This document shows positions 25,907-43,585 of a stretch of 64,000 nucleotides of DNA, one piece after another (the first letter of the stretch is position 1; the number at the start of each line of letters is the position of its first letter). The translations under genes were made by a program, and so were the position numbers. The DNA is from Escherichia coli (lineage in GTDB: Bacteria; Pseudomonadota; Gammaproteobacteria; Enterobacterales; Enterobacteriaceae): NCBI RefSeq assembly GCF_003019035.1, contig NZ_CP027447.1, one strand, 5' to 3'. The notes below the pieces were generated by a model. The model searched no databases, was not told the DNA's origin, and saw only the letters and a program-made list of their open reading frames with translations.

Positions 25907-26176
25907 TTACCACAAAGATTCCGGCCACACGACGCGACAGCCGTGCAGTTCGAAAACGCCCTGACGGAAATATCCCCTGTGGTCATGTCCGGTATACAGA
26001 TAACAGGCCTTTCCCTGCTCAAGCATGCGCATGCAATGCGCACTTCGGGAAACGCGGATGACAGGTTTGTTACCCCTGATGGTGATGCTTTGTACATCCG
26101 TGTTCGTCGCCTTAAGCGCCATAATGGCTGACTGCACTTTGCTGATTTGCTGGTTGATACCTGTGGTGGATTTCAT
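25907..26176 (-). CDS. Hypothetical early protein (89 aa) in the position of Mu kil
   Basis: ORF immediately downstream of B. Confidence 0.4.
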   Translation of the reverse strand: MKSTTGINQQISKVQSAIMALKATNTDVQSITIRGNKPVIRVSRSAHCMRMLEQGKACYLYTGHDHRGYFRQGVFELHGCRVVWPESLW

Positions 26177-26178
26177 TA

Positions 26179-27345: not shown

Positions 27346-27355
27346 GTTTCCCTCC

Positions 27356-29125
27356 TCAGTTGCCGTTAACAATGCTGATAACGCTGCTGCGGGCCGGCGT
27401 GGTCAGCGTGGCCATGACTTCATCCAGTGCGGCTTCCGGTACGCCGTCCGGGTACTGTGCCGTTAACTGGCGGTAATGTTCCGGCGTCCAGGTAAGGCCG
27501 TCGGCGCTGAACTTATCGCGCAGGGCTTTCGCGGCCTCCACATGAGTCATGGGACGTTGTTCAGTGCGCGGTCTGCGTACATCAGAGGCCTGACCGCGCT
27601 TCGGTATACAGGCCGGAAGTGTGGCGTCATCAATATGTTTATACGGGTCAAGCCGCCCGCCGAACGGCAGCGCCTTCGCCTTGCGTGCGGCAGCTGCATC
27701 TGCGGCGTTGTCTGTACCGGTGACCAGCGCTTCGGTTTCTTTTGCCGCCGTCTGTGCCGGTGTTTCCGGCAGGGCTTTGTAACTTTCGCCAAATACCGCC
27801 GCGCCTTCAGCAAAGCCAAACTCGTTCTTTCTGACCTCTTCGACCAGGAAGAACGTCTCGTGGCCGTCCTCACCGGTCAGAACCACCTGTGCCACATCGC
27901 TGCGCCATGGGTTACGGGTAATCATCAGTTTTTCACCAACCAGTACGCCCGGTACCGTTGATACGTCAAATTCAGTGCCCCGGAACGAGACACGAAGTTT
28001 TGGCGTGACTTTGCGGAGTTCTGGTGTCGTCACAGCCAGTTCACGGCATACCTCAACGGAAGGCGCTTTTTTCAGCTGCTCAGCAGTAATCTTCAGCCAG
28101 ATATCCGTGCGGGTTTTACCGTGGCGGCTGTGAACAGCTGTTGCGTTAAAGTGGCTACGCCATTTCGCGGCCAGCGCGTTGAGTTCTTCCAGACTGTGAA
28201 CCGGCCGGAACTTCAGACCCGGCTCCAGCTTGCGTTCGATAATGTCACGCGCCTTTTCCACCTGTCCGGTGGCGCGGGCGTTATGCGGCTTGTGCGCTAT
28301 CAGGTCGATGCCCAGTGAGCGGCACATGTTTTTCGTCATACCCGCGGTGTTTGCCGAGCCGGGGTCGAGATAGAGTATTTTCGGCACGCCGTGCAGCACG
28401 TCTGCGCCGCCACGCTCCTGCATGGCGTTGATAAGCACAGAACACAGGTTCTCACCGGATTCCGCACCCGTCACATACTCAACGTAAATCCAGCCGCTGG
28501 CATGGTCGGTAATCTCGTAACTCCACACGCGGTCACTGGCGATACGGGCAAGGTTAGCGGGCTTGTTCTTGTAGAACTTCGCGCTGTCCATCACCTGCAG
28601 CCCTTTGTGTCCATTGCTCAGGTAGTAAAGCGTGCAGAGAGAGGCATCAATCTGCCAGACATGATTGGGATGCAGACTGGCCACTTCGGTATGCGGCGCA
28701 GGGGCATCCAGTTGTTCCGGGTGCAGGCCATAGTTACGCAGGGCACGGCTGATAGCATCTTCGGACAACGGGAAAAACTCACCGGTGGTTTCATCTGTTC
28801 TGCCTGCGGAGATAAAGCCGTTAGCCCGCAGGGTTTCCACTGCATCTGCGATGGAATAGAGACGCTTACCGTTCTTGCGGGTGGCCTCACGTAGTGTGGC
28901 AGATATCAGCGCGGCTTCGTCGCGGGTCAGGGCGCTGCGCCCGGCATCGGCGCGTTTTTTGCGTTTATCAGTCACAGAGACCTCCTTCAGCCTGCGCAGC
29001 AGAGTGGCGCGGGACATGCCAAGTTCAGCACAGGCGGCGTCATATATTGCACCACGTTTACCATGCCCCGCGTCACGTGCCGCGCGGGCGACATAAACCA
29101 GTCGTTCAGTCAGGGCAGCATTCAT
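27356..29125 (-). CDS. DDE transposase (Mu A-like)
   Basis: 589 aa; N-terminal HTH-like region, integrase-core motifs (HVWQIDAS, YLDPGSANT). Confidence 0.8.
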   Translation of the reverse strand: MNAALTERLVYVARAARDAGHGKRGAIYDAACAELGMSRATLLRRLKEVSVTDKRKKRADAGRSALTRDEAALISATLREATRKNGKRLYSIADAVETLRANGFISAGRTDETTGEFFPLSEDAISRALRNYGLHPEQLDAPAPHTEVASLHPNHVWQIDASLCTLYYLSNGHKGLQVMDSAKFYKNKPANLARIASDRVWSYEITDHASGWIYVEYVTGAESGENLCSVLINAMQERGGADVLHGVPKILYLDPGSANTAGMTKNMCRSLGIDLIAHKPHNARATGQVEKARDIIERKLEPGLKFRPVHSLEELNALAAKWRSHFNATAVHSRHGKTRTDIWLKITAEQLKKAPSVEVCRELAVTTPELRKVTPKLRVSFRGTEFDVSTVPGVLVGEKLMITRNPWRSDVAQVVLTGEDGHETFFLVEEVRKNEFGFAEGAAVFGESYKALPETPAQTAAKETEALVTGTDNAADAAAARKAKALPFGGRLDPYKHIDDATLPACIPKRGQASDVRRPRTEQRPMTHVEAAKALRDKFSADGLTWTPEHYRQLTAQYPDGVPEAALDEVMATLTTPARSSVISIVNGN

Positions 29126-29128
29126 TGG

Positions 29129-30043
29129 TTATGCCTCCAGCCCGTTAATCTGTGGCGTCGGCTCAGTCAGCCATGAAGGCGCGACATCGCCTGTTGGCTC
29201 GTCCGGCAGGTCAAATGTGGAGCGCAGGCTACGCGCTGTGCTTTCCAGTTGACAGACCAGGCCTGCCATGAAGTCTCTGGGGGTATCAATCATGTTTTCA
29301 GCACAATATGCGCACAGCGTCTCAAAAGCGCTGGACAGTCGAACGGCGATAGCAGATTCCGCCTCAACCGCTAATGCTGTCACTTCCGCCCGCAGCTTCT
29401 TAACCTCTTCATCAGGCTCAGGCGGCTGAATACGGGATTTCTTCTCCAGTTTTGTGGAAAGCGAGTCGATTTTTTCGTTTTTGTCGGCCAGCACGCGCTG
29501 TTGTGCTGCGTTGGTTTCGCGGGCTTCGCGCAGGGCCTGACGCAATTCACGTACTGACATGCGATCAACGTCGTCAAGCGTCAGGCCGGCAACTGTGCCG
29601 CCGTCGGCCAATTCATCAAGTTCTTCATTATCCAGAACCATCAGGTCGTACAGTTTGGCTTTCCCCAAAACGCTCAACGTTGAGCGTTTTGTTGGCTCAT
29701 CACCTTCTCCCAAAAACTTCATACTGGCTTGCATCATGCGGCGAGCAACTTGTGGTGCAAGTCCGAGTTCATTTTCTAAAATGTTTGTAAAATCACCGTG
29801 TGGCTCATTTTCTTTTAAGATGATCAGCCGTTTACCCGCTTCCAGCATAGATTCAGCACTCTGCGCCATATAAAAACGTGCTTCGTGAACAATGCGATCA
29901 CGTTCATAAGGCAGTCCATCACCAAACTGCTGCATAATTTCCATGCGATGCTGTGTCATAGCGTTCAAATTGACATTGATGTTATCTGACAGCGGAACCT
30001 CAACATTCAGTTCAGTGTTAACGGGTGATTTGGTGCGTCCCAT
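29129..30043 (-). CDS. Hypothetical conserved early protein (304 aa, coiled-coil C-terminal half)
   Basis: ORF between the Ner-like genes and the transposase. Confidence 0.5.
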   Translation of the reverse strand: MGRTKSPVNTELNVEVPLSDNINVNLNAMTQHRMEIMQQFGDGLPYERDRIVHEARFYMAQSAESMLEAGKRLIILKENEPHGDFTNILENELGLAPQVARRMMQASMKFLGEGDEPTKRSTLSVLGKAKLYDLMVLDNEELDELADGGTVAGLTLDDVDRMSVRELRQALREARETNAAQQRVLADKNEKIDSLSTKLEKKSRIQPPEPDEEVKKLRAEVTALAVEAESAIAVRLSSAFETLCAYCAENMIDTPRDFMAGLVCQLESTARSLRSTFDLPDEPTGDVAPSWLTEPTPQINGLEA

Positions 30044-30053
30044 TGATTACTCC

Positions 30054-30425
30054 TTACAAACGACTACCTGAAATAACTCGTTGGTTGATTTCGTTAATAC
30101 GATCCTGTGCACGCGCCATCTCGTGACTGTGAGCCATGGCGATCTGTAGTAACTGGATTCCCGGTGCGAAACGTCCGTTCTCTAATTTCATGGCCAGTCC
30201 CTCTTCAATAAGGGTATTAAGTGCTCGATTGATATTCGCCGGGGACTCCCCCAGGGCTGATGCCAGTTCACCGTTAGAAACACCGTTCAGAGCATGACCG
30301 CGTAGAGCTTTGAGTACACGTAGGATGCGGCTCCCGGAACTGGAAATATTTACTTTACTCATGTCACATTTCCATTTTTGCAATATGTGATAACCTGTTG
30401 CATATGTGGAAAATTTATGCCGCAT
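30054..30425 (-). CDS. Putative winged-helix DNA-binding protein
   Basis: SRILRVLKALRGHALNGVSNGELASALGESPANINRALNTLIEEGL resembles MarR/IclR-type wHTH; start uncertain (alternative Met at 30362). Confidence 0.45.
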   Translation of the reverse strand: MRHKFSTYATGYHILQKWKCDMSKVNISSSGSRILRVLKALRGHALNGVSNGELASALGESPANINRALNTLIEEGLAMKLENGRFAPGIQLLQIAMAHSHEMARAQDRINEINQRVISGSRL

Positions 30426-30603
30426 TTGACGTGGGTTTTAATCCCAGTTTTACGGCAATTTCATGGGCTTTGCCGTAACGAGCTTTGGTCTGTCCATTGA
30501 GAACACGATAGACCTCATTGCGGCTGTAGCCGTGTTCTTCGGCCCAGCGGGTAAACGTGATACCACGCTGACGGAAGAGATTTTTAACTTGTTCGGAAGT
30601 CAT
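30415..30603 (-). CDS. Small HTH DNA-binding protein in the Ner position (first gene of the early operon)
   Basis: 62 aa with AGGAG RBS; divergent from the repressor gene. Confidence 0.55.
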   Translation of the reverse strand: MTSEQVKNLFRQRGITFTRWAEEHGYSRNEVYRVLNGQTKARYGKAHEIAVKLGLKPTSNAA

Positions 30604-30689
30604 TGTTGTCTCCTTTGTTGATGCAATGATGTTTGTTTTATATGTGATAGATTATGTGAACTATTGTTCTCATTGTCAATGAGGTTTAT
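30604..30689. promoter_or_regulatory. Divergent early/repressor promoter-operator region
   Basis: 86 bp AT-rich spacer between divergent starts; three direct copies of TATGTGA (30641, 30653, 30687). Confidence 0.55.
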
Positions 30690-31115
30690 GTGAATTTTGA
30701 TTCTCTTTGCGCGTCGCGGTTCAAAGCTGAGCGTTCGCGGTTATCACTCAAGCAGGCTGAAGTAGCAGCCCTTTGTGGCGTTTCAAGAGAAATGTGGGGG
30801 AAATATGAACGAGGGGTTGCTGTTCCCGGAGGTGAGTTACTTGCAGCCTTTGCAAGAATTGGGGCCAATGTACAGTTCATTCTTACCGGGGAGTCATCAG
30901 GTATAACTTTATCACGTGATGAAATGGAGTTACTGCAGCACTACCGGCAAGCACCGTTACAGGTCAAAGGTTCAGTTTTGTCGGCTTTGACTACTGGCTC
31001 CTCCAGAGAACGGGCGGAACAGGTTATTCATGGAGATGTTCTGGGGAATGTTATCAAAGGTAACGTAACCATAGGAACAGGTGGAATAATGAACAAAAAT
31101 ACCAAGAGAAGATGA
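30690..31115 (+). CDS. Prophage repressor (XRE-family HTH)
   Basis: GTG start with GAGG RBS; HTH LSLKQAEVAALCGVSREMWGKYERG; divergent from the transposition operon. Confidence 0.75.
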   Translation: MNFDSLCASRFKAERSRLSLKQAEVAALCGVSREMWGKYERGVAVPGGELLAAFARIGANVQFILTGESSGITLSRDEMELLQHYRQAPLQVKGSVLSALTTGSSRERAEQVIHGDVLGNVIKGNVTIGTGGIMNKNTKRR

Positions 31116-32098
31116 GTAAAGAGAAGCAAACAGTTAACGGGGATGTGGGTAACGTTGTCAGCGGTGATGTTACCATTCATAACTATTCTGCTGACATACT
31201 TCCTTCTGCCCAGCAACCAATTTCGTTGCTGCAAAAACGCGATTTACACAGATTGATGGATGAATTGGTTGATCTGGGGGAAAGTAAGCGCGAGCTATGG
31301 ATGACGATCCACACGAAACTTAATACCAAAACAGTTAATGAAATGACTGCGGCTGATTATCATGGTGCGGTTGAGATCCTTCAGAGATATGCACAACAGA
31401 TCCAGAATATGAAGGACTGTAATCTTCTGGTCAGCAAAATAATGGCGCTTACTGACCCTGGGTATCGTCTTGACCGTGACAGATACTGTCTGAAGCATTT
31501 CGGTACAACCCATCTTAAAGGCCTGGACAAAGAGCAGTTGCAGGCTGTGTTTGGTTATTTTGATGATCTGCTGAATATTCGTGATGAGAGTAAAACTCTA
31601 TCACCTCCATCGGAAAGCGGTGCAAAATCAGTCGCAACTGTACCAACCAGAAGCCGGAAGCCTCATGTAGTAGTGTTGGGGGGAGCGTTAGTTCTTGTAG
31701 CAATATTTTTCGTGGGAATGATTGTGTTCGCTGGTAAATGGGGAAATGCTAAAGCAGTAGCTTCTACTGAAACCAGCGTTTTTAACATTAAAACCAACGA
31801 CAAAATAATAGAAGATTCCATCCCCGCACTGCGCAGCATGTTTCCAGGATTAAATAAGTACTCAGATGATTTCCATTCGGTTTCAAGCTACAAGCAAAAA
31901 ACGGGCTGGCATACCCTTAAATTTACTGTATCAGCAAAGGCATCCGTCCCCGAAAATTATAGTGTTAAGGGCAAGGTTTGTTACATTAACATAAACCCTG
32001 ATGGTAGTTATGCTCGGGTTTTGACTGCTCCATGTCGTTCACTGCTACTTGATCAGCAAAGCACTCCTGACAGTAAGTACCGTTTTATTCTTAAATAG
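31112..32098 (+). CDS. Hypothetical single-pass membrane protein (moron), translationally coupled to the repressor
   Basis: ATGA overlap with the repressor stop; markedly AT-rich; one TM segment (VVVLGGALVLVAIFFVGMIVFAG) between N- and C-terminal domains. Confidence 0.6.
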   Translation: MSKEKQTVNGDVGNVVSGDVTIHNYSADILPSAQQPISLLQKRDLHRLMDELVDLGESKRELWMTIHTKLNTKTVNEMTAADYHGAVEILQRYAQQIQNMKDCNLLVSKIMALTDPGYRLDRDRYCLKHFGTTHLKGLDKEQLQAVFGYFDDLLNIRDESKTLSPPSESGAKSVATVPTRSRKPHVVVLGGALVLVAIFFVGMIVFAGKWGNAKAVASTETSVFNIKTNDKIIEDSIPALRSMFPGLNKYSDDFHSVSSYKQKTGWHTLKFTVSAKASVPENYSVKGKVCYININPDGSYARVLTAPCRSLLLDQQSTPDSKYRFILK

Positions 32099-32410
32099 AA
32101 AATAACAGCTGAATTACCATGGGAGCAGAAAAAAGACAAAGGCGATATCATGCTGCGTTCTAAAATTTTAATGTAAAAGGTGATGAACATGGCAGGGATT
32201 CAGGTTATCGCAGGAAGTTTTCCTAAAGGGTGGGCAAGCATGGGGTTCGGTACCATCGTGTTTGCCACCAATCCATGGAACGATGGGTAATGTCTGCATT
32301 TTCATAATCTGTAAGCCTTTTACAATTATTAAAAATATGGCAGGCTAGTCTGGTCTCGCGAGACTGACTGAACCTCGGTCGGCTCACAGTGCATTCCTGT
32401 GGGACGATGG

Positions 32411-32447
32411 CCAGCCCGGCTTTCGGGTGCCGGGCTGGTCGTTCTTT
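32411..32447 (+). terminator. Putative rho-independent terminator
   Basis: Perfect 10 bp stem ccagcccggc/gccgggctgg with 8 nt loop, followed by tcgttctttc. Confidence 0.5.
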
Positions 32448-32494
32448 CATGATGCGGCAGGGATAGTGGGATTTCTGTTAATGTGGTTTAGGGA

Positions 32495-32710
32495 TTATCC
32501 GGGGTGATTGTCTGCCTTTATCTGGTCCAGGGCATAAGTGATCCCTTCAGCAAAAACAGAAGTATCGAACTGCTTTTGTATTTCCTGAAAATGAACAGTG
32601 GCACGACAGATACTCAGTTCTCCGCGATGTAACCGGATAATATCTTCCAGAACATTGTTCACTGCTTCGGCACGGCGCTGATGTTCTGTTAACGTTAATC
32701 GGGGATTCAT
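32495..32710 (-). CDS. Hypothetical small protein (71 aa)
   Basis: Strong AGGAG RBS 7 nt before ATG. Confidence 0.5.
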   Translation of the reverse strand: MNPRLTLTEHQRRAEAVNNVLEDIIRLHRGELSICRATVHFQEIQKQFDTSVFAEGITYALDQIKADNHPG

Positions 32711-33113
32711 GATGCACTCCTTAAATGATGATTTTTATGTACTCACCGGCAAAATATTCTGCCGATTACTGAACACGCATCCGGCACCTCAGGTTTTGAT
32801 TTATTCTGGTTTTTTCGATATCCCGGACCAGGTTGATCACGACCAGAAAAAGTGCCGGTATTTTATTGATACGCTGATATGGCTTCGGGATAACAGCTAT
32901 ATTCGTTACTCTCAGTTGCTGGCTGTGGGAGCGGCTGATGTCGTCCTCACGGAAAAAACGCTCTGTCTGCTCAATGCCATGCCGACCTTTCTGCAGCCCC
33001 GGCCCGTACCATTTAAAGAGTTGCTTCTGGATGCAGTAAAAACCGGCGAAAATGCAGTCATCGCTGAATGCGTATCCCGGATTATGCGTTACGTGTTTAA
33101 TGAACGTAAGTGA
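32709..33113 (+). CDS. Hypothetical protein (134 aa), uncertain
   Basis: Only long ORF in the 380 bp gap; weak RBS; start overlaps the divergent 71 aa gene and 3' end overlaps the convergent NTPase gene. Confidence 0.3.
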   Translation: MMHSLNDDFYVLTGKIFCRLLNTHPAPQVLIYSGFFDIPDQVDHDQKKCRYFIDTLIWLRDNSYIRYSQLLAVGAADVVLTEKTLCLLNAMPTFLQPRPVPFKELLLDAVKTGENAVIAECVSRIMRYVFNERK

Positions 33114-33832
33114 GGTTTATCTGCTGTCTGCATAATCCCGATAGCCAGTGCGAGGGGAAGTAATTCCGGGGAAACTCTTTCAAACAGCGATGCCCATTCT
33201 CCTCTCGCCATCACTCTGTCCAGCCCGCCCCCCAGCTGCATTTCAGCAATCTTCCTGATTTCCCGGAACAACGCCGCTTTGATCTCTTCATGCTCAGCTT
33301 TATTTTCCGGTGTCAGAATGTATTCGTCGAAGAACCGGGGAGGCTGGTTAACGGGGATTGTGTTTACCGGGATGTGTTCCTGTTTCCCGTACTTCGGGGA
33401 CGAACAACATTCTGTTGGCTGACCGGTGAGTTTACGTAACTCCTTCATGAGCAGCTCCTGATCGTAAACTGTCATCAGTGCCGCAATGGTGGCATGCAGT
33501 GCATCGGGCAGTATCCAGGGTTGCCGGCCCGTGGGGCATATAACATCCAGTAGCTCATTCGTCCGACAGATACGCTCCTCTCCGTATGACAACAGGCCCT
33601 GTCCCGTGTATTCCTCCAGCCTGATCACTGTGCCAGCCCGTGGCTTCTGCCAGGTCGTCAGATCATCGCCACTCATACGGCGCTCATTCTCCACGTCAGC
33701 AGCATCGACAATGACGCTGTTTCCGAGTTCCTGTTTCACCACTTCCTCTATCCGCGCCAGTACGTAACTTTTACCGCTGCCCACAGGACCGGACACGGTG
33801 ACAGTGATGACCGGATTCAGTGTATGTGTCAT
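33089..33832 (-). CDS. P-loop NTPase/kinase-like protein (247 aa)
   Basis: N-terminal Walker A VSGPVGSGKSY and probable Walker B VIVDAAD; strong AGGAG RBS. Confidence 0.55.
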   Translation of the reverse strand: MTHTLNPVITVTVSGPVGSGKSYVLARIEEVVKQELGNSVIVDAADVENERRMSGDDLTTWQKPRAGTVIRLEEYTGQGLLSYGEERICRTNELLDVICPTGRQPWILPDALHATIAALMTVYDQELLMKELRKLTGQPTECCSSPKYGKQEHIPVNTIPVNQPPRFFDEYILTPENKAEHEEIKAALFREIRKIAEMQLGGGLDRVMARGEWASLFERVSPELLPLALAIGIMQTADKPHLRSLNT

Positions 33833-33962
33833 GTTGCATTCTCCTCTGTGAATAATTCATCGTTTATCCTGCACATCCCGTATCCCCGGCTCTCTTAACG
33901 CGCTTTAAAATCCTTCGCGCCCTGTATTTGTGATGCTGTCTCCACCAGACAAGGAGACACAC

Positions 33963-34313
33963 ATGAAAAACCTGAAAAAATTCATTCCCCCTGTTAAAAA
34001 ACCTCGCCTCAGCGGCTGGCTGCTGACCTCAGTGCTGTTGCTGGGCACCATCGCTCTGGTCTCGCCACAGCAGCTGCCTGTTGTGATCTACAAGCTGGCA
34101 CTCATCACGCTGGCAGCAGTGCTGGGTTACTGGCTTGACCGTTCACTCTTCCCCAAAGCCCGTCCCGGTCAGTACCTGAAACATGAAGACAGGCTGATGG
34201 CTGAAGGGCGTTTCCCTGTGCAGACCGGCCTTCACCTTGTATTTTCTGCTGCGTTAATCCGCCGTGCACTGATTGTTGCAGCGGTCTGTCTGGCTGTGGC
34301 AACAGGACTGTGA
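33963..34313 (+). CDS. Putative holin-like membrane protein
   Basis: AAGGAGA RBS; hydrophobic segments; immediately upstream of the endolysin. Confidence 0.4.
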   Translation: MKNLKKFIPPVKKPRLSGWLLTSVLLLGTIALVSPQQLPVVIYKLALITLAAVLGYWLDRSLFPKARPGQYLKHEDRLMAEGRFPVQTGLHLVFSAALIRRALIVAAVCLAVATGL

Positions 34314-35038
34314 CCATGAACTGGCCTCAAATCACCCTCATTATTCTGTTCGCCTTTGGTCTGGGCGTAACCGCCATCAGACACGGAGAACCACGTAACG
34401 ATAAATACAGCTTCTGGTGGCAGCTTGCTGGCAACCTGGTGATTGTCTGGCTGCTCTGGTGTGGCGGCTTCTTCAGTCAGGCCCGCGCAGCGCAGCCTCC
34501 GCAGGCTGCGCTGCAGTATCGCGATGATGTGATCCGTAATGCCCGGCTTGAATGGGGACTGTCTGCGCCGGTGGCCGATTTCGCTGCGCAACTGCATCAG
34601 GAAAGCGGCTGGCGACCTGATGCGGTCTCGCCGGCTGGCGCTCAGGGACTGGCGCAGTTCATGCCCGCCACTGCTGACTGGATAAGTCAGCTGATGCCGG
34701 GGCTTAACAGCCGTGAGCCGTTTAATCCGGCATGGGCCATCCGGGCGCTGGTCAGCTATGACCGCTGGCTGTGGCAGCGCGTCAGCGCCGCCAGTGACTG
34801 CGAACGTATGGCCATGACACTGTCGGGCTATAACGGTGGTCTGGGCTGGGTACAACGGGACAGGCAGCTAGCATCACAGAAAGGCCTGGACAGTACCCGC
34901 TGGTTCGGGCATGTCGCCACGGTGAATGCCGGACGCAATGCTGCCAGCTGGCGGGAGAACCGCCATTATCCGCAGCGCATCCTGCACGAACTGGCCCCCC
35001 GTTATCTGACATGGGGGGGCGGCAGCTGTGTGGACTAA
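34310..35038 (+). CDS. Endolysin, soluble lytic transglycosylase (SLT) family
   Basis: SLT motif ESGWRPDAVSPAGAQGLAQFMPATA. Confidence 0.75.
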   Translation: MTMNWPQITLIILFAFGLGVTAIRHGEPRNDKYSFWWQLAGNLVIVWLLWCGGFFSQARAAQPPQAALQYRDDVIRNARLEWGLSAPVADFAAQLHQESGWRPDAVSPAGAQGLAQFMPATADWISQLMPGLNSREPFNPAWAIRALVSYDRWLWQRVSAASDCERMAMTLSGYNGGLGWVQRDRQLASQKGLDSTRWFGHVATVNAGRNAASWRENRHYPQRILHELAPRYLTWGGGSCVD

Positions 35039-35681
35039 CCTGCTAAAAAATCTGCCGTGGCGCAGTCTGCTGCTGGCTGTGCTCATAAATGCTTTTCTGA
35101 TTGGACTTTATTACCTGGGCTACAAAAGCGGGCATGAAAACGCCACGCGCGACGGCGATAAGGCGATCAGTGAGTTGCAGTCAGCATTCGACACATACAA
35201 AACGGAGCAGGCAATGCTTGAGAACGCTGCGTTGCGAGCATGGGCAAAACGGTATCAGGAGCAGGTGGCCGCCGGGCAGCGGGCTGAAGCCGGTTATCTT
35301 GAGCAGATTGCTCAACTGGAGAGCCGGAACAAACAACTACAGGGGCAAATTAACGATGTCACACAGCGCTGGATTGATGAAAAAGGTAAGAGCCATCCCA
35401 TTGAGTGCGTGTTTACTCGCGGTTTCGTGCGCCAGTACAACGCCGCACTCGGGTATGACAACGCATCCGTCGACACCGGTCATTCAGACGCAACTGCCGC
35501 CGCTGGCACCGGCACTGGCGCAGCGACCGGGCAACCTGAAACCGCTGACGCCCGGTTACGCAATTCGGGTGTCTCCCAGCGTGACGTCCTCGCCAACATC
35601 ATCGACAACGCAGGGCAATGTCGTCGCTGGCGAAACCAGATAAACGCGCTGCTGGATGAACGGGAAGGATTACAGAAATGA
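35028..35681 (+). CDS. Putative i-spanin (Rz-like)
   Basis: GTG start; N-terminal TM anchor then coiled-coil; follows the endolysin. Confidence 0.5.
   Translation: MWTNLLKNLPWRSLLLAVLINAFLIGLYYLGYKSGHENATRDGDKAISELQSAFDTYKTEQAMLENAALRAWAKRYQEQVAAGQRAEAGYLEQIAQLESRNKQLQGQINDVTQRWIDEKGKSHPIECVFTRGFVRQYNAALGYDNASVDTGHSDATAAAGTGTGAATGQPETADARLRNSGVSQRDVLANIIDNAGQCRRWRNQINALLDEREGLQK
35377..35643 (+). CDS. Putative o-spanin (Rz1-like lipoprotein) embedded in the i-spanin gene
   Basis: Alternate frame inside 35028..35681; lipoprotein signal MKKVRAIPLSACLLAVSC and proline-rich mature part. Confidence 0.5.
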   Translation: MKKVRAIPLSACLLAVSCASTTPHSGMTTHPSTPVIQTQLPPLAPALAQRPGNLKPLTPGYAIRVSPSVTSSPTSSTTQGNVVAGETR

Positions 35682-36004
35682 CACTGCAGGTTGAATTCTG
35701 GACGGTGGTGAGTTTTCTGCTCACCTTCATGGGGTTTGTTGGAGGGCTCGCCAAATGGTTGTTCAGTAAAACAGAAGAACGCCAGGCGGCACGATTCGCC
35801 TCCCTTGAACAGGCCCTGCAACAGTCCGCCTCCAACTGGGGCGAGCTGGAAAAGGAATTTATGCGATTTAAAGCGGATTTACCGCTGAATTATGTCCGTC
35901 GCGAGGATTATATCCGTGGCCAGACAGTCATCGAGGCCAAACTGGACGCACTTTACAACAAACTGGAAGTGGTACAGCAGTACCGCAATACCGGAGGTCA
36001 ATAA
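35678..36004 (+). CDS. Hypothetical membrane protein (N-terminal TM, coiled-coil)
   Basis: ORF overlapping the spanin stop. Confidence 0.45.
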   Translation: MTLQVEFWTVVSFLLTFMGFVGGLAKWLFSKTEERQAARFASLEQALQQSASNWGELEKEFMRFKADLPLNYVRREDYIRGQTVIEAKLDALYNKLEVVQQYRNTGGQ

Positions 36005-36315
36005 TGGTCGATATTACCCGGGTACGCCGCGAATCCCTGCGCTGGAGTCTGCTGGTTGCCCTGAACAAAACCCGCCCTTACACCGCCAGCGAAACGTTGC
36101 TGCTGGACGTGTCCCGTGCCATCTACCCGGACACCACGCAACTGGAGCTGCGCCGGGAGCTTGATTATCTGGCAGATCGCAAAATGGTGGAGCTGGAGAA
36201 GAGACCGTCCGGTGACTGGTTTGCCGATCTGAGTCGCCTTGGTGTGGATATTGTGGAATACACCGTGGAATGCGGCCCGGGTATTGCCCGCCCGGAAAAA
36301 TACTGGAGTGAGTGA
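36004..36315 (+). CDS. Hypothetical protein (103 aa)
   Basis: ORF in operon context upstream of the packaging genes. Confidence 0.45.
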   Translation: MVDITRVRRESLRWSLLVALNKTRPYTASETLLLDVSRAIYPDTTQLELRRELDYLADRKMVELEKRPSGDWFADLSRLGVDIVEYTVECGPGIARPEKYWSE

Positions 36316-36866
36316 TTATGGGACGTCGCAGCAGCATTGATTCTCTGCCGACGGAGGTCCGCCGCTGGCTGGAGCGGGCACTGACGGAGAATAACTTCAG
36401 TGGATATGCCCGGCTGGAAGCCCTGCTGAAGGAGAAGGGATACGTCATCACCCGCTCTTCCCTGCAGCGGTTTGGCTACAAAATGGAGCGACAACTGGCC
36501 CGCATCCGCGCCGCCACCGAGGCCGCGCGTCTGATGGCGCAGGAAGCCGGTGACGAGGCGGACGATCGTTCTGCCGGGATGATGGCACTGATTCAGACCG
36601 AGATGCTGGATGTTCTGATGCGTCTGCAGGAAATCGGGGAAAGTGATGATCCTGCAAAACGCGCAAAACTGCTGGCCACTGCTTCGGAAAGTATAGCCAC
36701 ACTGGTACGGGCTTCGGTGACCCACAAGCGATTCCGGGCCGAGGTGCTGGCAAAAATTGAGGCGCGGATGAATGCTCTGGAAAAACAGGCGAAGTCCGGC
36801 GACACCCGCCTGAGTCTGGAAACCCTGAAGATGGTGCGGGAACAGATTTACGGGGTGATCTCATGA
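36312..36866 (+). CDS. Mu gp27-like protein (possible terminase small subunit)
   Basis: 184 aa immediately upstream of and overlapping the terminase large subunit. Confidence 0.5.
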   Translation: MIMGRRSSIDSLPTEVRRWLERALTENNFSGYARLEALLKEKGYVITRSSLQRFGYKMERQLARIRAATEAARLMAQEAGDEADDRSAGMMALIQTEMLDVLMRLQEIGESDDPAKRAKLLATASESIATLVRASVTHKRFRAEVLAKIEARMNALEKQAKSGDTRLSLETLKMVREQIYGVIS

Positions 36867-38179
36867 CAGCGGCCATTCAGCTGTATCCCTATCAGCAGTC
36901 GTGGTTTCTGGATCGTGCCCGTTTCAAGATTGGTATGTTTGCCCGTCAGACGGGCAAGACGTTCACCACCACGCTGGAACTGGTTGATGACTGTTTTGAA
37001 ACGGAGGCCTCAGGGGGACGTACACGCTGGGTGATCCTCTCGCGCGGGGAGCGTCAGGCAAAAGAAGCCATGGTGGAGGGGGTGAAAAAACACTGCAGCG
37101 CCTACCGGATGGCGGCCCGTGAGGTGGAAAGTTATTACCGTGCTGAAAGCGGCGAACGCTACACCATGCTTGAGGTGGAGTTACCCGGCGGCTCCCGTAT
37201 CACGGCCCTGCCGGCGAATCCCGACACGGCTCGTGGGTTTGCGGCTAACGTCTTTCTGGATGAGTTCGCCTTCCATGCCGACAGTCGCAAAATCTGGACC
37301 GCTCTGTTTCCGGTCATTTCCAACGGCTACAGACTGCGTGTGACATCGACACCGAACGGCAAGGGAAACAAGTTTTATGAACTGATGACCAGCAACGCCC
37401 TTGAAAATGTCTGGTCACGTCACATCGTGGATATTTACCGTGCCGTGCGTGATGGTCTGCCGCGGGATATTGCACAGATGCGACAGGCGCTCAACGATGA
37501 TGACGCCTGGGCACAGGAGTTTGAACTGAAGTGGCTGGATGAGGCATCGGCCTGGCTGACGTTTGAACTGATTGACGGCGTGGAGCACGATGCTGCCGGG
37601 CTGCCGGTGCACTATACGGGTGGCCCCTGCTTTGTGGGGGTGGATATTGCTGTTCGTAATGACCTGTTTGTCATCTGGGTGCTTGAACAGGTGGGGGATG
37701 TCTACTGGACCCGGGAAATCATCACCCGTAAACGGGCCACCTTTGCTGAGCAGGATGCTTTGCTGGATGACGTATTTTTCCGTTACCGCGTGCTGCGCTG
37801 CTGTATGGATCAGACCGGGATGGGAGAAAAGCCGGTGGAGGATGCACAGGGTCGCCATGGCAGAAGCCGTGTGGAGGGGGTGATATTTAACAGCCCGAAC
37901 AAGCTCACCCTCGCGACCCGTGGCAGGGAGATGTTTGAGGACCGCCGCCTGCGTATTCCGGCGGGAGATGTGGTCCTGCGCAGTGATCTGCATAAACTTC
38001 GCAAGGTTACCGGGCCTACCGGAACTCCCCGCTTTGTGGCCGAAAGTGATGCAGCAGGTCACGCCGACCGCACATGGGCCTGTTTTCTGGCAATAAACGC
38101 CACTGACGGACCGTCAGGGCCGGTGATGGCCCGTTCGCGTCACCGCCGTGAGGCTGGTCATATACTGGAGGGATTCTGA
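36863..38179 (+). CDS. Terminase large subunit (Mu gp28-like)
   Basis: 438 aa; Walker A-like FARQTGKTF; nuclease-like C-terminus. Confidence 0.8.
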   Translation: MTAAIQLYPYQQSWFLDRARFKIGMFARQTGKTFTTTLELVDDCFETEASGGRTRWVILSRGERQAKEAMVEGVKKHCSAYRMAAREVESYYRAESGERYTMLEVELPGGSRITALPANPDTARGFAANVFLDEFAFHADSRKIWTALFPVISNGYRLRVTSTPNGKGNKFYELMTSNALENVWSRHIVDIYRAVRDGLPRDIAQMRQALNDDDAWAQEFELKWLDEASAWLTFELIDGVEHDAAGLPVHYTGGPCFVGVDIAVRNDLFVIWVLEQVGDVYWTREIITRKRATFAEQDALLDDVFFRYRVLRCCMDQTGMGEKPVEDAQGRHGRSRVEGVIFNSPNKLTLATRGREMFEDRRLRIPAGDVVLRSDLHKLRKVTGPTGTPRFVAESDAAGHADRTWACFLAINATDGPSGPVMARSRHRREAGHILEGF

Positions 38180-39675
38180 TGGCGAGGGGTATCTGGGTTT
38201 CACCCGATGAATTTGTTGCTTTTTCTGAGCCTCAGAAATCACTGACCGCGCAGATTGCCTCCCGCAGCCGCGCGATCGACTTTTACGGACTGGGCATGTA
38301 TCTGCCCAATCCTGATCCCATTCTCAAGGCTCAGGGACGGGATATCCGTATCTACCGCGAACTGCGCACCGACCCGCTGGTCGGGGGCTGTATCCGCAGA
38401 CGTAAAGCAGCGCTCAAATCGCTGGAGCGTGGACTGGAGCGCGGTCACGCTTCTGCCCGGGTCTTCCGTTTCATCCGCGACATGCTCGACGATCTGGATC
38501 TGTCCCGCATCATCGGTGAGATGAGCGATGCCGTGCTCTACGGGTATCAGCCCTGTGAAATCATGTGGGGCCGTTCGGTCAGGGCGTGGGCGGTGACGGA
38601 TATTGTCGGCAAACCGCCTGAGTGGTTTCAGTTTGATACGGACAACTGCCTGCGCTTCCGGGCGCGTGATGCGGGTGTGGAGGGTGAGCTGCTGTCACCG
38701 TCAAAATTCGTGGTGCCGGCACAGGATGCCTCGTATGACAATCCTTACGGTTTCCCTGACCTGTCCATGTGCTTCTGGCCGGTCGCCTTCAAGAAAGGCG
38801 GGATGAAATTCTGGCTCCGCTTTGCCGAAAAGTTTGGCTCCCCATGGGTGATCGGTAAGCACCCGAGGGGTGCAAATGATGCAGAGATTGAAAAACTGCT
38901 GGACTCCATGGAGCAGATGGTGGAGGACGCGGTGGCCGCCATCCCTGATGACAGCAGCATCGAACTCAAAGCAGCGGATGGCAAGGCGGACAGCAGCGAG
39001 GTATTCCGCGAGCTGATCACACTGTCACGCAGTGAGATCTCCATTGCATTACTCGGTCAGAATCAGACCACGGAAGCGAACAGTAACAAGGCCTCTGCAC
39101 AGGCCGGGCTGGAGGTGACGGCTGATATCCGCGATGCGGATGCGGACATCATTCAGGCGGCAGTGAATCAGGTCATAAGAACGGTGGTCACCCTGAACTT
39201 CGGCGATGTGCCGTGTCCGGTCTGGGCCATGTGGGAACAGGAGGCCATTGATGACACCCGTGCCACCCGCGACGAAAAACTCACCCGGGCGGGTCTGCGT
39301 CTGACCCCGCAATACTTCAAGCGTGAGTACCAGCTGCAGGACGGCGATATTGACGAGACACCACCGTCAGAACGCGAGAAGAACATGCTGCCGCTGTCAT
39401 TTGCCGAGGCGATTGATGCCGATATTCAGGCTCAACAGCAGCTTGACGACGCGCTGGACATTCTGATGAACGGAGGTGTGTTAAATGGCACGCTGGAACC
39501 CGTCCTGGCACCTCTGTTTAAGCGGGTCGAAAACGGGGTTAACCCGTCTGAGCTGCTGGGCGAACTGGCGGAGCTCTACCCTCAGATGAACACGGACGAT
39601 CTGCAGGAACGGCTGGCCCGCATTCTCTTTGTGGCAAATATCCGGGGGCGTCTGCATGAGCGTGACAACGGCTGA
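38179..39675 (+). CDS. Portal protein (Mu gp29-like)
   Basis: 498 aa directly after the terminase; Mu-like head gene order. Confidence 0.75.
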   Translation: MARGIWVSPDEFVAFSEPQKSLTAQIASRSRAIDFYGLGMYLPNPDPILKAQGRDIRIYRELRTDPLVGGCIRRRKAALKSLERGLERGHASARVFRFIRDMLDDLDLSRIIGEMSDAVLYGYQPCEIMWGRSVRAWAVTDIVGKPPEWFQFDTDNCLRFRARDAGVEGELLSPSKFVVPAQDASYDNPYGFPDLSMCFWPVAFKKGGMKFWLRFAEKFGSPWVIGKHPRGANDAEIEKLLDSMEQMVEDAVAAIPDDSSIELKAADGKADSSEVFRELITLSRSEISIALLGQNQTTEANSNKASAQAGLEVTADIRDADADIIQAAVNQVIRTVVTLNFGDVPCPVWAMWEQEAIDDTRATRDEKLTRAGLRLTPQYFKREYQLQDGDIDETPPSEREKNMLPLSFAEAIDADIQAQQQLDDALDILMNGGVLNGTLEPVLAPLFKRVENGVNPSELLGELAELYPQMNTDDLQERLARILFVANIRGRLHERDNG

Positions 39676-40477
39676 ACTGGCGTACTGCATGACGCTTCCC
39701 CCGAAGCGGGCAGTCAGTTACCTGAAGTCCAAAGGGTATCAGATTACCTGGGACTGGGAAGAAATGTGGCAGGAAGCCCATGCCCGCGCCTTTACCGTCG
39801 CTAAAGTGACCCGCCTGGATATTCTGGAAGATATTCGCGGGGCACTGCAGCAGGCTGTCGATGAAGGAAAAACCGATCGCTGGTTCCGGCAGGAGCTGGA
39901 GCCGGTGCTGAAGCGTAAGGGATGGTGGGGACCACGTGACACGACTGACCCGGTAACGGGTGAGCCGGTCACCATTCAGCAGGGCAGCCCGTGGCGGCTC
40001 GACACCATCTTTCGCACCAATATGTCCGTACTCTACAGCGCCGGTCGTTGGGCGGAGCAGATGGAAAACGTCGACGACAGGCCGTACTGGATGTATACCG
40101 GCATCAACGACAGCCATACCCGCAGGAGCCATCTGGCGCTGCATGGTCTGGTGCTGCGCTGGGATGACCCGTTCTGGCAGGCATTTTACCCGCCGAACGG
40201 CTGGCGCTGCCGCTGTAGTGTGATTGCCCTGAGTGCGGCGGATGTACGTGCCCGGGGCCTGAAGGTTATCAGCTCCGGCTCTGCCATGGGCCAGGAACTG
40301 AAACTGGTCTCAGAGAAAACCGGCGAAATGCGGAACGTGGCCACCTTTAATACCGGCACCACGAAGGTGACCACCGACGTCGGCTGGTCTTATGCACCGG
40401 GGGCAGCATACCGTCCCGACCTGGCCCGCTATCAGGGTACGCTTCAGCCACTGGCACAACAGGAACTGAGAGGATAA
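39656..40477 (+). CDS. Head morphogenesis protein (Mu F-like)
   Basis: Follows the portal as in Mu; start at ATG for MSVTTAEL. Confidence 0.7.
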   Translation: MSVTTAELAYCMTLPPKRAVSYLKSKGYQITWDWEEMWQEAHARAFTVAKVTRLDILEDIRGALQQAVDEGKTDRWFRQELEPVLKRKGWWGPRDTTDPVTGEPVTIQQGSPWRLDTIFRTNMSVLYSAGRWAEQMENVDDRPYWMYTGINDSHTRRSHLALHGLVLRWDDPFWQAFYPPNGWRCRCSVIALSAADVRARGLKVISSGSAMGQELKLVSEKTGEMRNVATFNTGTTKVTTDVGWSYAPGAAYRPDLARYQGTLQPLAQQELRG

Positions 40478-40479
40478 CA

Positions 40480-40938
40480 ATGGCTTCCGATAACCTGGTC
40501 AGTATCACCATTAACGATAAATCCCTGCGCCGGAGCCTCCGTGCGCTGGATCTTGCTGCCACAGACCTGGAGCCCGCGATGCGCAAAATCGCCGGAACCC
40601 TGCTGGCGGAAACACAGTTTAACTTTCTTGATGAGGGGCGTCCGGGGTGGATGCCCTCGCTGGCAGCGGAAGAACGTGACGGGCAGACACTGCAGGATAC
40701 CGGGCGTCTGATGGGGTCAGTATCAACCGACCATGACGCCCGGCAGGCTGTTGTGGGGACCAACGTTGTTTACGGTGCCATTCACCAGTTCGGGGGTAAA
40801 ACGGGGCGTAATGAGTCTGTTGAACTTCCGGCCCGCCCGTTCCTGCCGGTGACGGGGGATGGAGAACTACAGCCTGAAGTGGTAATCCCCATCCTCGATA
40901 CCATTGTCCGCCATCTTGAATCAGCGGCCCGTCGCTGA
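40480..40938 (+). CDS. Virion morphogenesis protein (Mu G-like)
   Basis: 152 aa, position after F. Confidence 0.65.
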   Translation: MASDNLVSITINDKSLRRSLRALDLAATDLEPAMRKIAGTLLAETQFNFLDEGRPGWMPSLAAEERDGQTLQDTGRLMGSVSTDHDARQAVVGTNVVYGAIHQFGGKTGRNESVELPARPFLPVTGDGELQPEVVIPILDTIVRHLESAARR

Positions 40939-40980
40939 GTTTTCTCTCTTCAGGCGGGTGATTTATCATTGCCAGCGAAT

Positions 40981-41026
40981 GAGGGGCTGTATTACCTTTA
41001 TAAAGGCTTTACAGCCTCTGTTTTAT
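40981..41026 (+). terminator. Putative terminator between head-assembly and capsid operons
   Basis: Stem ggggctgta/tacagcctc followed by gttttat. Confidence 0.45.
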
Positions 41027-41152
41027 AACCGCTTCCGGTTCACCGCATTGCTTTCCCTGTCCTTCTCCCCTGATGTTTTCTAAAGCAGATTAAAATCGCC
41101 GGGCCTGCATTTCTCACAAACTGTCTCCGACAACATAACGCGGGACAGCAAA

Positions 41153-42268
41153 ATGTCAGCCATTCACATTTTTAAAGCCGGTACTCATACCGATATGCAC
41201 GGCAAAAAACTGCCGTTCACGCCAGACGATCTTGCCGCCTGCGTGAAAGCCTATGACCCGTCCGTCCATGAAGCACCACTCGTGATTGGTCATCCCAGAA
41301 CGGAAGACCCGGCGTGGGGCTGGGTGAAAGCCCTGTCGCTCAGCGGCGTCGATCTGATGGCAGAGCCTGCCCAGCTGGACCCGCAGTTTGCTGAGATGGT
41401 CACCGACGGACGATTCAAAAAAGTGTCCGCCTCTTTCTACCTCCCGGATTCACCGTCCAATCCGAAGCCCGGCGTGCTCTACCTGCGCCATGTGGGCTTT
41501 CTCGGGGCACAGCCACCTTCCGTCAAGGGGCTGAAACAGGTGTCCTTCAGTGAGCAGGAAGAAGGTGTGGTGGAGTTCGCCGACTGGCAGGCCATCACGA
41601 ATGCCTCCCTGTGGGGAAAGCTGCGCGATTTTCTGATCGCCCGCTTCAGTCTGGACGAGGCAGAAAAAGTCCTGCCGGAATGGCAGCTCAACAGTCTGCG
41701 CGAAGAGGCGTACCGCGACACACTGTCGCAGGATGCAGCAGGTGCCCAATTCAGTGAGACAGGCCCGGGGCCGTCTTCCGCAAGTAACGAGGAATCATCG
41801 ATGACAAAAGAAGAGATTGAAGCCCTTCAGGAGGAGAACCGCCGCCTGAAGCAGCAGGCTGCTGATCGCGATGCGCGTGATGCACAGGTCAGACAGGAGC
41901 AACTGCATAAGGACAATGTGGCCTTTGCAGAAAAACTGGTCGCAGAGGGCCGTCTGGCTCCCCGCGCCTCCTCCGTGGTGGTTGCCCTGCTGGATGCCGT
42001 CGCCGGTGGCGACAAGCCGGTGGAGTTTGCTGAGGGGGAAAGCCGCACACCGCTGGCCACCGCCTTTCGTTCATTGCTCTCCGACGGGGAGCCGGTGATG
42101 AATTTCGCCGAACAGGCCACAAAAGAGCGTGTCGGCGACACGGTGAAGGTGGATGTGGCGGAGTTTGCGGAAGCCGATCCTGAGCGTCTGGCCCTGCATC
42201 AGAAAGCAGTGGCCCTGTCCAAAAAAGAAGGCATCAGCTATGAGGCTGCTGTCGCACGCTGCCTGTAA
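41153..42268 (+). CDS. Putative head protease/scaffold (Mu I-like)
   Basis: 371 aa with coiled-coil C-terminal half, immediately before the major capsid gene. Confidence 0.55.
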   Translation: MSAIHIFKAGTHTDMHGKKLPFTPDDLAACVKAYDPSVHEAPLVIGHPRTEDPAWGWVKALSLSGVDLMAEPAQLDPQFAEMVTDGRFKKVSASFYLPDSPSNPKPGVLYLRHVGFLGAQPPSVKGLKQVSFSEQEEGVVEFADWQAITNASLWGKLRDFLIARFSLDEAEKVLPEWQLNSLREEAYRDTLSQDAAGAQFSETGPGPSSASNEESSMTKEEIEALQEENRRLKQQAADRDARDAQVRQEQLHKDNVAFAEKLVAEGRLAPRASSVVVALLDAVAGGDKPVEFAEGESRTPLATAFRSLLSDGEPVMNFAEQATKERVGDTVKVDVAEFAEADPERLALHQKAVALSKKEGISYEAAVARCL

Positions 42269-42282
42269 TTTAAGGAGAAATC

Positions 42283-43236
42283 ATGTCTGATTACTTAAAA
42301 GGTAAACGTGTCGTTGATCCGGTACTGACCAGTATCGCCCGTGGCTATAAAAATGCCGCATTCATCGGCGAACGTATTTTCCCCGTCGTGCTGACGGACA
42401 AGGAAGGCGTGCGTGTACCGACCTTCGGGAAAACCGCCTTTGTGGAATATGACACCGAGCGCGCCGTCGGGGCGGACAGCAATGTTCTGGTCCGTGAGAA
42501 AACCGGCACGCTTGATCTGGTGCTGGGTGAACACGATCTGGCAGCGCCGGTGGATTACCGCGAACAGGCGGAGTCCATGTTTAACGAGGAGAGCAAGGCC
42601 ATCCGTCGCGCCACGAATGGCGTGAACCTGCGCCGTGAACTTATCGCTGCCCGTCTGGCTCAGGATGAAAAGGTCTACCGTACCGGACACGTCAAAAAAC
42701 TGACGTCCGGCGACCGCTGGGCCGGTGGTAAGGGTGACCCCATCGGGGTGATTGAAGCCGGTATGGAAGCGGTCCGTACGGCCACAGGGCTGCGTCCTAA
42801 CCTGATGACCATGGGTGCCGGCGTGATGGCGCTGCTGAAGTTCCATCCAGCACTTCAGGCAGCCATCGGAGCCAACGAGCGTAAGCGCATCACCACGGAG
42901 ATCCTGCAGGACCTCTTTCAGATCGAAGAGATCGTCATCGGTGCTCCTGTTTCCCTGCCATCCATGAAAGCGGCAATGGATAAAAACAGCGTGCCGGCGG
43001 ATATCTGGGGAGACAACCTGATGCTGCACTATGTCGGCAAACCGCAGCCCGGGGCGGACAGCGCGGACGAGAACGAGCCGTCCTTCGGCTACACTCTGCG
43101 TCGTAAGGGGATGCCTGTTGCTGACAAATACGACGGAGCCGGTGGCAAGGTGAAGTACTGCCGTTATACCGATATCTACAAAGTCGCCGTGGTTGGTGGC
43201 GATGCCGGGTATCTCATCACCGGTATCAGTAAATAA
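42283..43236 (+). CDS. Major capsid protein (Mu T-like)
   Basis: 317 aa; strong AAGGAGA RBS; position after protease/scaffold. Confidence 0.7.
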   Translation: MSDYLKGKRVVDPVLTSIARGYKNAAFIGERIFPVVLTDKEGVRVPTFGKTAFVEYDTERAVGADSNVLVREKTGTLDLVLGEHDLAAPVDYREQAESMFNEESKAIRRATNGVNLRRELIAARLAQDEKVYRTGHVKKLTSGDRWAGGKGDPIGVIEAGMEAVRTATGLRPNLMTMGAGVMALLKFHPALQAAIGANERKRITTEILQDLFQIEEIVIGAPVSLPSMKAAMDKNSVPADIWGDNLMLHYVGKPQPGADSADENEPSFGYTLRRKGMPVADKYDGAGGKVKYCRYTDIYKVAVVGGDAGYLITGISK

Positions 43237-43245
43237 GGAGGCGTT

Positions 43246-43584
43246 ATGGGAACCACTCAGCAGGTCATTCTGATTACAACCGTAACGGCAGGGGCAGAAC
43301 TGGCACAGCAGCGTTTTGTCGGGGCAGATAATACCCCCTGTAAAGCCGGTGCCGCAGCGCTCGGGGTTGCCGATGTGGATGCTGTTACCGGCGACAGCAC
43401 GCCGGTGAGCGTTCTGGGCATTATTGCTGTTGAGGCCGGTGCTGCGGTCAGCCGTGGTGTGGCTGTTCAGTCAGATGCTCAGGCCAGAGCCGTGCCGCAG
43501 TCCGGCGACGGTAAATCCTGTGGTATTGCACTTGATGAAGCCGGGGGTGAAGGCGACGTCATTCGTATCCTGCGCGGGGTGTGA
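43246..43584 (+). CDS. Small Ala/Gly-rich head protein (possible decoration protein)
   Basis: 112 aa following the capsid gene. Confidence 0.45.
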   Translation: MGTTQQVILITTVTAGAELAQQRFVGADNTPCKAGAAALGVADVDAVTGDSTPVSVLGIIAVEAGAAVSRGVAVQSDAQARAVPQSGDGKSCGIALDEAGGEGDVIRILRGV

Positions 43585-43585
43585 C

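Follow-up and report, generated by a model that had tools for sequence, protein, structure and literature searches.

The gene at 35028..35681 of an Escherichia coli prophage holds, in its distal half and in another reading frame, a second open frame that looks like a small lipoprotein, and the question raised by this arrangement is whether the inner frame is a gene in its own right and whether the two products would work together as a spanin. We examined the locus within the 64,000 nucleotides of chromosome available to us (hereafter, the window). An earlier note on this DNA had placed an i-spanin-like gene at 35028..35681, with a lipoprotein encoded in an alternate frame from 35377 to 35643, and these coordinates and the peptide given with them proved exact. 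Our analysis indicates that the locus is very probably an embedded (Rz/Rz1) two-component spanin, the function that closes the lysis cassette of a BcepMu-like prophage.

The outer gene (35028..35681, + strand) encodes a protein of 217 aa from a GTG start. Its first 11 nt also belong to the end of the endolysin gene, and GTG is the start codon in nearly all i-spanin homologues. PHROG 1403 (‘Rz-like spanin’) matched the whole length of the protein (E = 2.7e-88), which bears out its description as i-spanin-like, and three further Rz-like spanin PHROGs matched it more weakly. No Pfam family was assigned to it; OmpH and YlqD matches were sub-threshold and represent coiled-coil noise, the OmpH match (E = 0.0065, 17 bits vs. 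a cut-off of 32) lying within the coiled-coil region. The layout is an N-terminal transmembrane helix (residues ~12–32), a long helix, a variable linker (~145–178), and a C-terminal helix, and the hydropathy profile (19-residue window) has its sole strong peak, of 2.03, at residue 22. An AF2 model built on a 19-sequence alignment (mean pLDDT 61, pTM 0.29) served for secondary structure only; its helices (residues 11–119, 131–140, 171–179, and 184–216) are compatible, at that confidence, with the same order of transmembrane domain, helix, linker, and helix. The low-confidence segment of this model (145–178) is also the most variable part of alignment A1 (19 relatives, 69–90% identity), in which residues 111–143 form the most conserved block and Cys127 and Cys198 are invariant, leaving two periplasmic cysteines on hand for intermolecular disulfides. 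From these features the outer gene product is predicted to be of type II, anchored in the inner membrane by an N-terminal transmembrane domain and carrying a mostly helical domain in the periplasm.

The +1 frame of this gene is open from 35101. Within it, the ATG at 35377 opens a protein of 88 aa (MKKVRAIPLSACLLAVSC...) with Cys18 as lipidation candidate, and the open reading frame begun there (MKKVRAIPLSACLLAVSCASTTPHSG...) closes with the TAA at 35641–35643. A second in-frame ATG at 35356 gives a 95-aa prolipoprotein (MSHSAGLMKKVRAIPLSACLLAVSC...) with predicted lipidation at Cys25, and the mature lipoprotein is identical from either ATG. Taken from 35356, the putative o-spanin (Rz1-like) gene (35356..35643, + strand) extends from 0.50 (0.53 from 35377) to 0.94 of the length (L) of the i-spanin gene; embedded o-spanin genes usually span 0.4–0.5 L to 0.9–1 L (PMC6139136), so the geometry of the window is typical of embedded spanins. 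The lipoprotein signal reported earlier is borne out by a PROSITE PS51257-type core pattern, which matches PLSACLLAVSC and ends on the second Cys, giving a lipobox A-V-S-C with Ala at +2. We also considered the Cys of LSAC (Cys19 of the 95-aa form) as the lipidation site and rejected it: its h-region would be ~6 residues long, and the PS51257 core fails there, with K/R among the 10 preceding residues. The mature o-spanin would comprise 71 aa including the lipidated Cys (70 after it), with 11 Pro and 21 Ser plus Thr. Neither Pfam, NCBIfam, nor PHROG yielded a match to the nested protein, and NCBIfam models likewise gave none for the outer one.

An open +1 frame of this length is no rarity for this sequence. 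When we resampled synonymous codons from the window’s own usage with the outer protein held fixed (20,000 trials), the +1 frame was stop-free across 35356..35640 in 16% of resamplings (P ≈ 0.16), and a stop-free +1 run of at least 180 codons arose in 7.5% (P = 0.075). We therefore discarded the length of the alternate frame as evidence for a gene; since 16% of resamplings are equally stop-free, the open frame as such proves nothing. The lipoprotein signal is rarer. A loose signal rule was applied to every ATG-started ORF variant of 50 aa or more in the six frames of the window (755 variants) and fired on 8, so that a lipobox is about a 1% event there; two of these eight variants are the nested ORF itself and one is a genuine host lipoprotein.

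Protein databases offered little further help. Searching the nested peptide against a database of 5.8 billion proteins returned seven matches, most of them visibly frameshift or fusion chimeras and none a clean full-length nested protein. Since such matches are useless as independent evidence, the comparison was moved to DNA loci. This comparison provided the decisive support for the nested gene. Annotated records of E. coli and of phages, genomes sampled one per species, and IMG/VR together supplied 97 related loci; 93 were usable, and these reduced to 67 distinct i-spanin nucleotide sequences whose proteins share 39–98% identity with that of the window. The lipobox Cys and the PS51257 core are present in all 67, as AVSC, LVSC, VASC, AASC, LASC, or VVSC, and the residue at +2 is only ever A or S; as this residue is not Asp, the o-spanin would carry no inner-membrane retention signal. 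The lipidated Cys is followed in these sequences by 59–70 residues that include 8–17 prolines. In 66 of the 67 the nested frame is open to the usual stop, the sole exception being an Erwinia dacicola copy (L072/L007) with a frame disruption, in which the i-spanin is also shortened (200 aa). The motif is missing from two loci, both with a truncated or degraded i-spanin (L011, 197 aa; L016, 136 aa). The mature o-spanin has no periplasmic Cys in 62 of 67 sequences, so any intermolecular disulfide must usually come from the i-spanin alone.

Variability by codon position indicates which frame is under selection. Measured in the outer frame for a close group (n = 47 sequences), variability at positions 1, 2, and 3 was 0.186, 0.136, and 0.335 upstream of the overlap, 0.117, 0.051, and 0.111 within it, and 0.077, 0.054, and 0.153 after the nested stop, such that the ratio of position 3 to position 1 moved from 1.8 upstream to 0.95 in the overlap and 2.0 in the tail. 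Codon differences that keep the same amino acid were similarly reduced (from 0.28 upstream to 0.11 in the overlap). In a sliding window over outer codons 157–180 the pattern was inverted (position 1, 0.23–0.27; position 3, 0.05–0.09), which is the periodicity expected of a coding +1 frame, and normal periodicity resumed after approximately codon 193. The neighbouring downstream gene, taken from the same loci, had a normal pattern (0.041/0.017/0.193).

Conservation of the two proteins changes over in the same region. Outer codons 147–180 serve the outer protein as its linker and the nested protein as its Pro-rich core. Over this stretch conservation was higher in the +1-frame protein than in the outer-frame one, both overall (0.72 vs. 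0.55) and among eight divergent representatives (0.55 vs. 0.39); outside it the outer frame was the better conserved. By sequence criteria, constraint on the outer protein alone cannot yield these codon-position and conservation patterns, and the nested +1 frame is predicted to be a prolipoprotein gene whose product, with its conserved lipobox and Pro-rich mature part, is maintained by purifying selection at the protein level. In lambda, the Rz linker is permissive and the proline-rich region of Rz1 is mutationally sensitive (PMC6139136), and the selection pattern in the window fits these genetics.

The start of the nested gene is the one part of the earlier description that we would amend. 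Its frame, stop, and mature product stand, but the ATG at 35356 is better conserved than the proposed one at 35377, being retained in 67/67 distinct homologues vs. 62/67. At 35356 the outer-frame codon varies among GAT, CAT, and AAT and is never xAC; in the five homologues that have lost the ATG at 35377 the outer codon is in every case GAC, synonymous with the usual GAT. Because of this difference in retention we regard 35356 as the conserved start, and o-spanin translation most likely begins there. A purine-rich element (AGGGG/GAGGA) is conserved 9–10 nt upstream of 35356, with the ATG itself 10 nt downstream of AGGGG, though the Shine-Dalgarno-like elements before both 35356 and 35377 lack either strength or optimal spacing. 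The ATG at 35377 may serve as an additional or alternative start, or it may survive only since the outer frame needs Asp117, usually encoded by GAT. The two ATGs, 21 nt apart, occur together in 62 of the 67 relatives, and the use of both to give two prolipoproteins with differing n-regions (MSHSAGLMKKVR... and MKKVR...) seems to us improbable. If it did occur, such a dual start, loosely reminiscent of lambda S105/S107, could tune spanin supply via differing kinetics of export or lipidation.

The closest known counterparts of this gene pair include those of Burkholderia phage BcepMu and Pseudomonas phage B3. Two-component spanins of the embedded type include one family formed by BcepMu and phiE255 and another formed by B3, JBD25, JBD18, and JBD67 (Kongari et al. 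2018, PMC6139136), and the BcepMu lysis cassette consists of holin, endolysin, Rz, and Rz1 (PMC2771037). Gene order in the window is identical to BcepMu gp21–gp28. BcepMu gp23 is annotated ‘Rz’ and gp24 ‘Rz1, out of frame, embedded proline-rich protein’, the latter gene likewise lying out of frame within the distal half of the Rz gene. Pairwise BLASTP aligned gp23 with the C-terminal 118 aa of the window’s i-spanin (31% identity, E = 6e-10) and gp24 with its o-spanin (35% over 71 aa, E = 8e-6), and this homology, with the coding signature of the nested frame among relatives, upholds the embedded Rz/Rz1 architecture that had been proposed for the locus. The relationship is a distant one: BcepMu was absent from tblastn matches of the i-spanin to phage records at E ≤ 1e-3, and the window’s spanin would not cluster with that of BcepMu under a BLASTCLUST-type grouping. 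The two also differ in lipobox (AVSC in the window, LSAC in BcepMu) and in the endolysin, which has an N-terminal extension with two transmembrane domains in the window and a plain signal peptide in BcepMu gp22.

Beyond near-identical enterobacterial records, the only other phage-record tblastn matches to the i-spanin were of the B3 type, namely ORF27 of Pseudomonas phage B3 and its equivalents in B3-like phages (~29–33% identity over ~95% of the protein). B3 shares the synteny of the window and the fused two-TMD form of the endolysin, and a lipoprotein ORF in the +1 frame of its Rz gene has the window’s core motif. This ORF (L098 2799..3107) ends 7 nt beyond the annotated Rz stop and, going by the coordinates of the B3 record, is therefore overlapped rather than fully nested; it also differs from the window’s o-spanin in its lipobox (AAGC) and in an extra periplasmic Cys. 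Alignment A3, in which nine divergent nested proteins are set beside BcepMu gp24 and the lipoprotein of the B3 +1 frame, had the common core PP.L..RP.....L.P.Y...TSSPT, with R57-P58, L64, Y68, P80, and T84 (window numbering) invariant, BcepMu and B3 included. These alignments place the window’s spanin in the BcepMu/B3-type embedded spanin group, as a distant member.

Comparison with lambda Rz/Rz1, the prototype that has been characterized by experiment, reveals a likeness of design. Both pairs stand at the end of the cassette and combine a type II i-spanin, whose periplasmic domains are helical with a linker, with a Pro-rich lipoprotein of the outer membrane (predicted, in the window’s case) whose gene lies entirely within the i-spanin gene, in the +1 frame at ~0.5–0.9 L. 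However, neither protein of the window’s pair matched the lambda Phage_lysis (Rz) or Rz1 Pfam models at E ≤ 0.1, which places the pair outside the lambda sequence families. The window’s i-spanin (217 aa) is longer than lambda Rz (153 aa), and its mature o-spanin is also longer (~70 aa vs. 40 in lambda). Lambda Rz1 makes an intermolecular disulfide through Cys29, unlike the window’s o-spanin, which has no periplasmic Cys. We infer that the window’s spanin is a functional analogue of lambda Rz/Rz1 and not a member of the lambda sequence families.

The genes around the spanin make up a recognizable lysis cassette, as the earlier note had also held. Immediately upstream stand a holin gene (33963..34313, + strand; 116 aa), which matched Pfam PF13272 Holin_2-3 (E = 1.1e-40) and PHROG 1528 (E = 7.5e-54), and an SLT lytic transglycosylase endolysin gene (34316..35038, + strand), which matched Pfam SLT PF01464 (E = 1.4e-14) and PHROG 669 (E = 5.7e-70), with stop and start codons that overlap or abut. 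The holin ATG at 33963 is preceded by AAGGAG; by gene order this gene corresponds to BcepMu gp21, and RefSeq relatives have a 351-nt ‘putative holin’ at the corresponding place. The endolysin, whose ORF is open from a GTG at 34310, aligns with BcepMu gp22 and B3 ORF25 and has an N-terminal extension of ~60 aa with two hydrophobic segments, of which residues 3–56 match PHROG 5479. Downstream of the spanin pair lies a gene for a small membrane protein (35678..36004; PHROG 462, ‘lipoprotein’); we considered it as a separated o-spanin and rejected it, as it is without any cysteine. The full order is holin, SLT endolysin, i/o-spanin, membrane protein, Mu gp26-like protein, Mu gp27-type TerS, and TerL.

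The surrounding element is, by its gene content, a BcepMu-like transposable prophage. It covers ~33 kb (window ~22.5–55.6 kb), comparable with phage records of 34.7–34.9 kb, and carries genes for an rve transposase, a MuB-like ATPase, an HTH repressor, terminase, and tail proteins. The asc/hypF and hyc regions flank its insertion site in the E. coli chromosome. PADLOC gave no match for the three upstream cargo ORFs, and for the HTH repressor it returned weak RmrA/HTH matches only. Literature searches on phage PhiKM and on Bcepmuvirus in E. coli yielded nothing relevant. Four intact lysis ORFs and a full-length element make it plausible that the prophage is lysis-competent.

Three other readings of the locus deserve consideration. 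The nested frame could be no gene at all, only the stop-free frame of a GC-rich coiled-coil gene with a chance lipoprotein signal and a conservation borrowed from the outer protein. In its favour are the frequency of open +1 frames among synonymous resamplings and the lack of a curated family match to the nested protein, and the part encoding the signal peptide does overlap the most conserved block of the outer protein (111–143). Such a reading does not account for the suppression of synonymous change in the outer frame, for a codon periodicity that turns over to that of the +1 frame, or for a +1 protein that is more conserved than the outer one in codons 147–180. Moreover, the ATG at 35356 persists through D/H/N changes in the outer protein, the codon always ending in T, and the nested protein is homologous to an annotated BcepMu Rz1. 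We consider it scarcely credible that the frame is not a gene. Both proteins might instead be made and serve some purpose other than lysis, for example as a superinfection-exclusion or surface-modifying lipoprotein alongside an OmpH-like, chaperone-like periplasmic protein. A weak OmpH match and a RefSeq relative named ‘OmpH family outer membrane protein’ hint in this direction, yet the OmpH score falls far under the gathering cut-off and comes from a coiled-coil region, and the full-length spanin match to PHROG 1403 tells against such an explanation. The pair also sits between the endolysin and packaging genes, as do the Rz/Rz1 pairs of BcepMu and B3, and its nesting, N-terminal transmembrane domain, two conserved periplasmic Cys, and Pro-rich lipoprotein fit the definition of a spanin (PMC6139136), so that a role outside lysis is very unlikely.

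A different doubt concerns the prophage rather than the genes: the spanin genes could be real and the prophage defective, its cassette a relic that does not bring about lysis. The closest phage records, PhiKM and KP12, were deposited as partial sequences, and a literature search on these two phages found no paper. Against this, all four lysis ORFs are full-length relative to their homologues, and the ~33-kb element retains its transposase, MuB-like ATPase, repressor, terminase, and tail genes. Overall, we think a defective prophage rather unlikely, and we return to an embedded spanin at the end of a lysis cassette as the preferred interpretation.

If this interpretation is correct, the lambda model (PMC6139136) suggests how the two proteins might act. 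The o-spanin would be lipidated at its Cys and cut by signal peptidase II, and it would then be sorted to the outer membrane by the Lol pathway, a destination suggested by the presence of Ala, not Asp, at +2. There it would pair C-terminally with the i-spanin, such that the complex bridges the periplasm. Once holin and endolysin had destroyed the murein, the spanin complex would complete lysis by fusing the inner membrane with the outer or by disrupting them.

Of 5,426 complete E. coli genomes, 637 gave a match to a cassette of similar kind. Although the embedded arrangement is well known, the nested gene is usually overlooked when members of this clade are annotated. None of four annotated relatives (two RefSeq E. 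coli genomes and phages KP12 and PhiKM) lists the o-spanin gene, and the labels given to the outer gene are ‘hypothetical protein’, ‘putative lipoprotein’, ‘OmpH family’, and, once, ‘lysis system spanin subunit’. The practical value of our analysis accordingly lies in annotation, and its biological significance is small. The locus does provide a clean teaching example of dual coding, in which the selected frame visibly switches along the overlap. For the prophage itself, the predicted genes confirm that a BcepMu-like element of E. coli carries all four canonical lysis functions.

Geometry sets the window's spanin pair (i-spanin-like gene at 35028..35681, plus strand, with the lipoprotein frame nested inside it) apart from that of Pseudomonas phage B3. 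The B3 record (L098) carries an annotated Rz at 2489..3100 and, in the +1 frame, a lipoprotein ORF at 2799..3107 that is unannotated in RefSeq. Because this ORF stops 7 nt past the annotated Rz stop, the B3 pair is overlapped rather than embedded by the coordinates of the RefSeq record, whereas a previous study placed B3 among the embedded spanins (PMC6139136). Public databases also hold homologues of window 35028..35681 (P0003-P0007, proteins matched by the nested peptide), which presumably arose through frameshifts in the assemblies or as artefacts of gene calling within the dual-coding stretch.

Lipoprotein labels occur both on the outer spanin gene and on the gene after it. The next gene, a PHROG 462 member and homologue of BcepMu gp25 (35678..36004, plus strand), is labelled 'lipoprotein' in both PHROGs and RefSeq. 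Its 108-aa product has a single N-terminal hydrophobic helix, but there is no cysteine anywhere in the protein; it therefore cannot be a lipoprotein. In the related phage records KP12 and PhiKM, by contrast, it is the outer spanin gene that is named 'putative lipoprotein'. The lipoprotein-signal rule was checked against a host ORF with a classical lipobox (4306..3221, minus strand) as positive control; this ORF starts MFKRRYVTLLPLFVLLAACSSKP, and its product probably resembles MltB.

Upstream of the spanin pair, the SLT endolysin (34316..35038) bears an N-terminal extension of ~60 aa (34316..34500, plus strand) whose two hydrophobic segments precede ARA|AQ. Endolysin residues 3-56 match PHROG 5479. 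The corresponding part in Pseudomonas phage D14K is a separate 52-aa gene annotated 'phage lysis protein', whereas it is fused to the endolysin in the window, as the N-terminal extension is in phage B3. The D14K endolysin has a lipobox-like signal of its own (LLSAC), and BcepMu gp22 carries a plain signal peptide, in contrast to the two-segment extension found here.

A variable cargo region (31112..33832) separates the HTH repressor (30690..31115) from the holin and contains ORFs at 31112..32098 and 32709..33113 and a P-loop protein of unknown function (33089..33832, minus strand; PHROG 3787). For these three ORFs, a Pfam search gave no match above the gathering cut-off and a PADLOC scan gave no match. 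Near this position, a related prophage in E. coli N61 and the related phages KP12 and PhiKM encode a DNA adenine methylase.

The element as a whole (~22500..55600, ~33 kb) is a BcepMu-like transposable prophage, with an rve transposase (27356..29125) and a MuB-like AAA ATPase (26179..27372), both on the minus strand. Its insertion site in the E. coli chromosome is bordered by nor/hypF/asc at one end and by hyc (formate hydrogenlyase) genes at the other, the host flanks occupying 1..20000 and ~58000..64000. Strain SCU-301 matches the left flank at 100% identity; for the lysis cassette, the top match among complete E. coli genomes reached only 96.3%.
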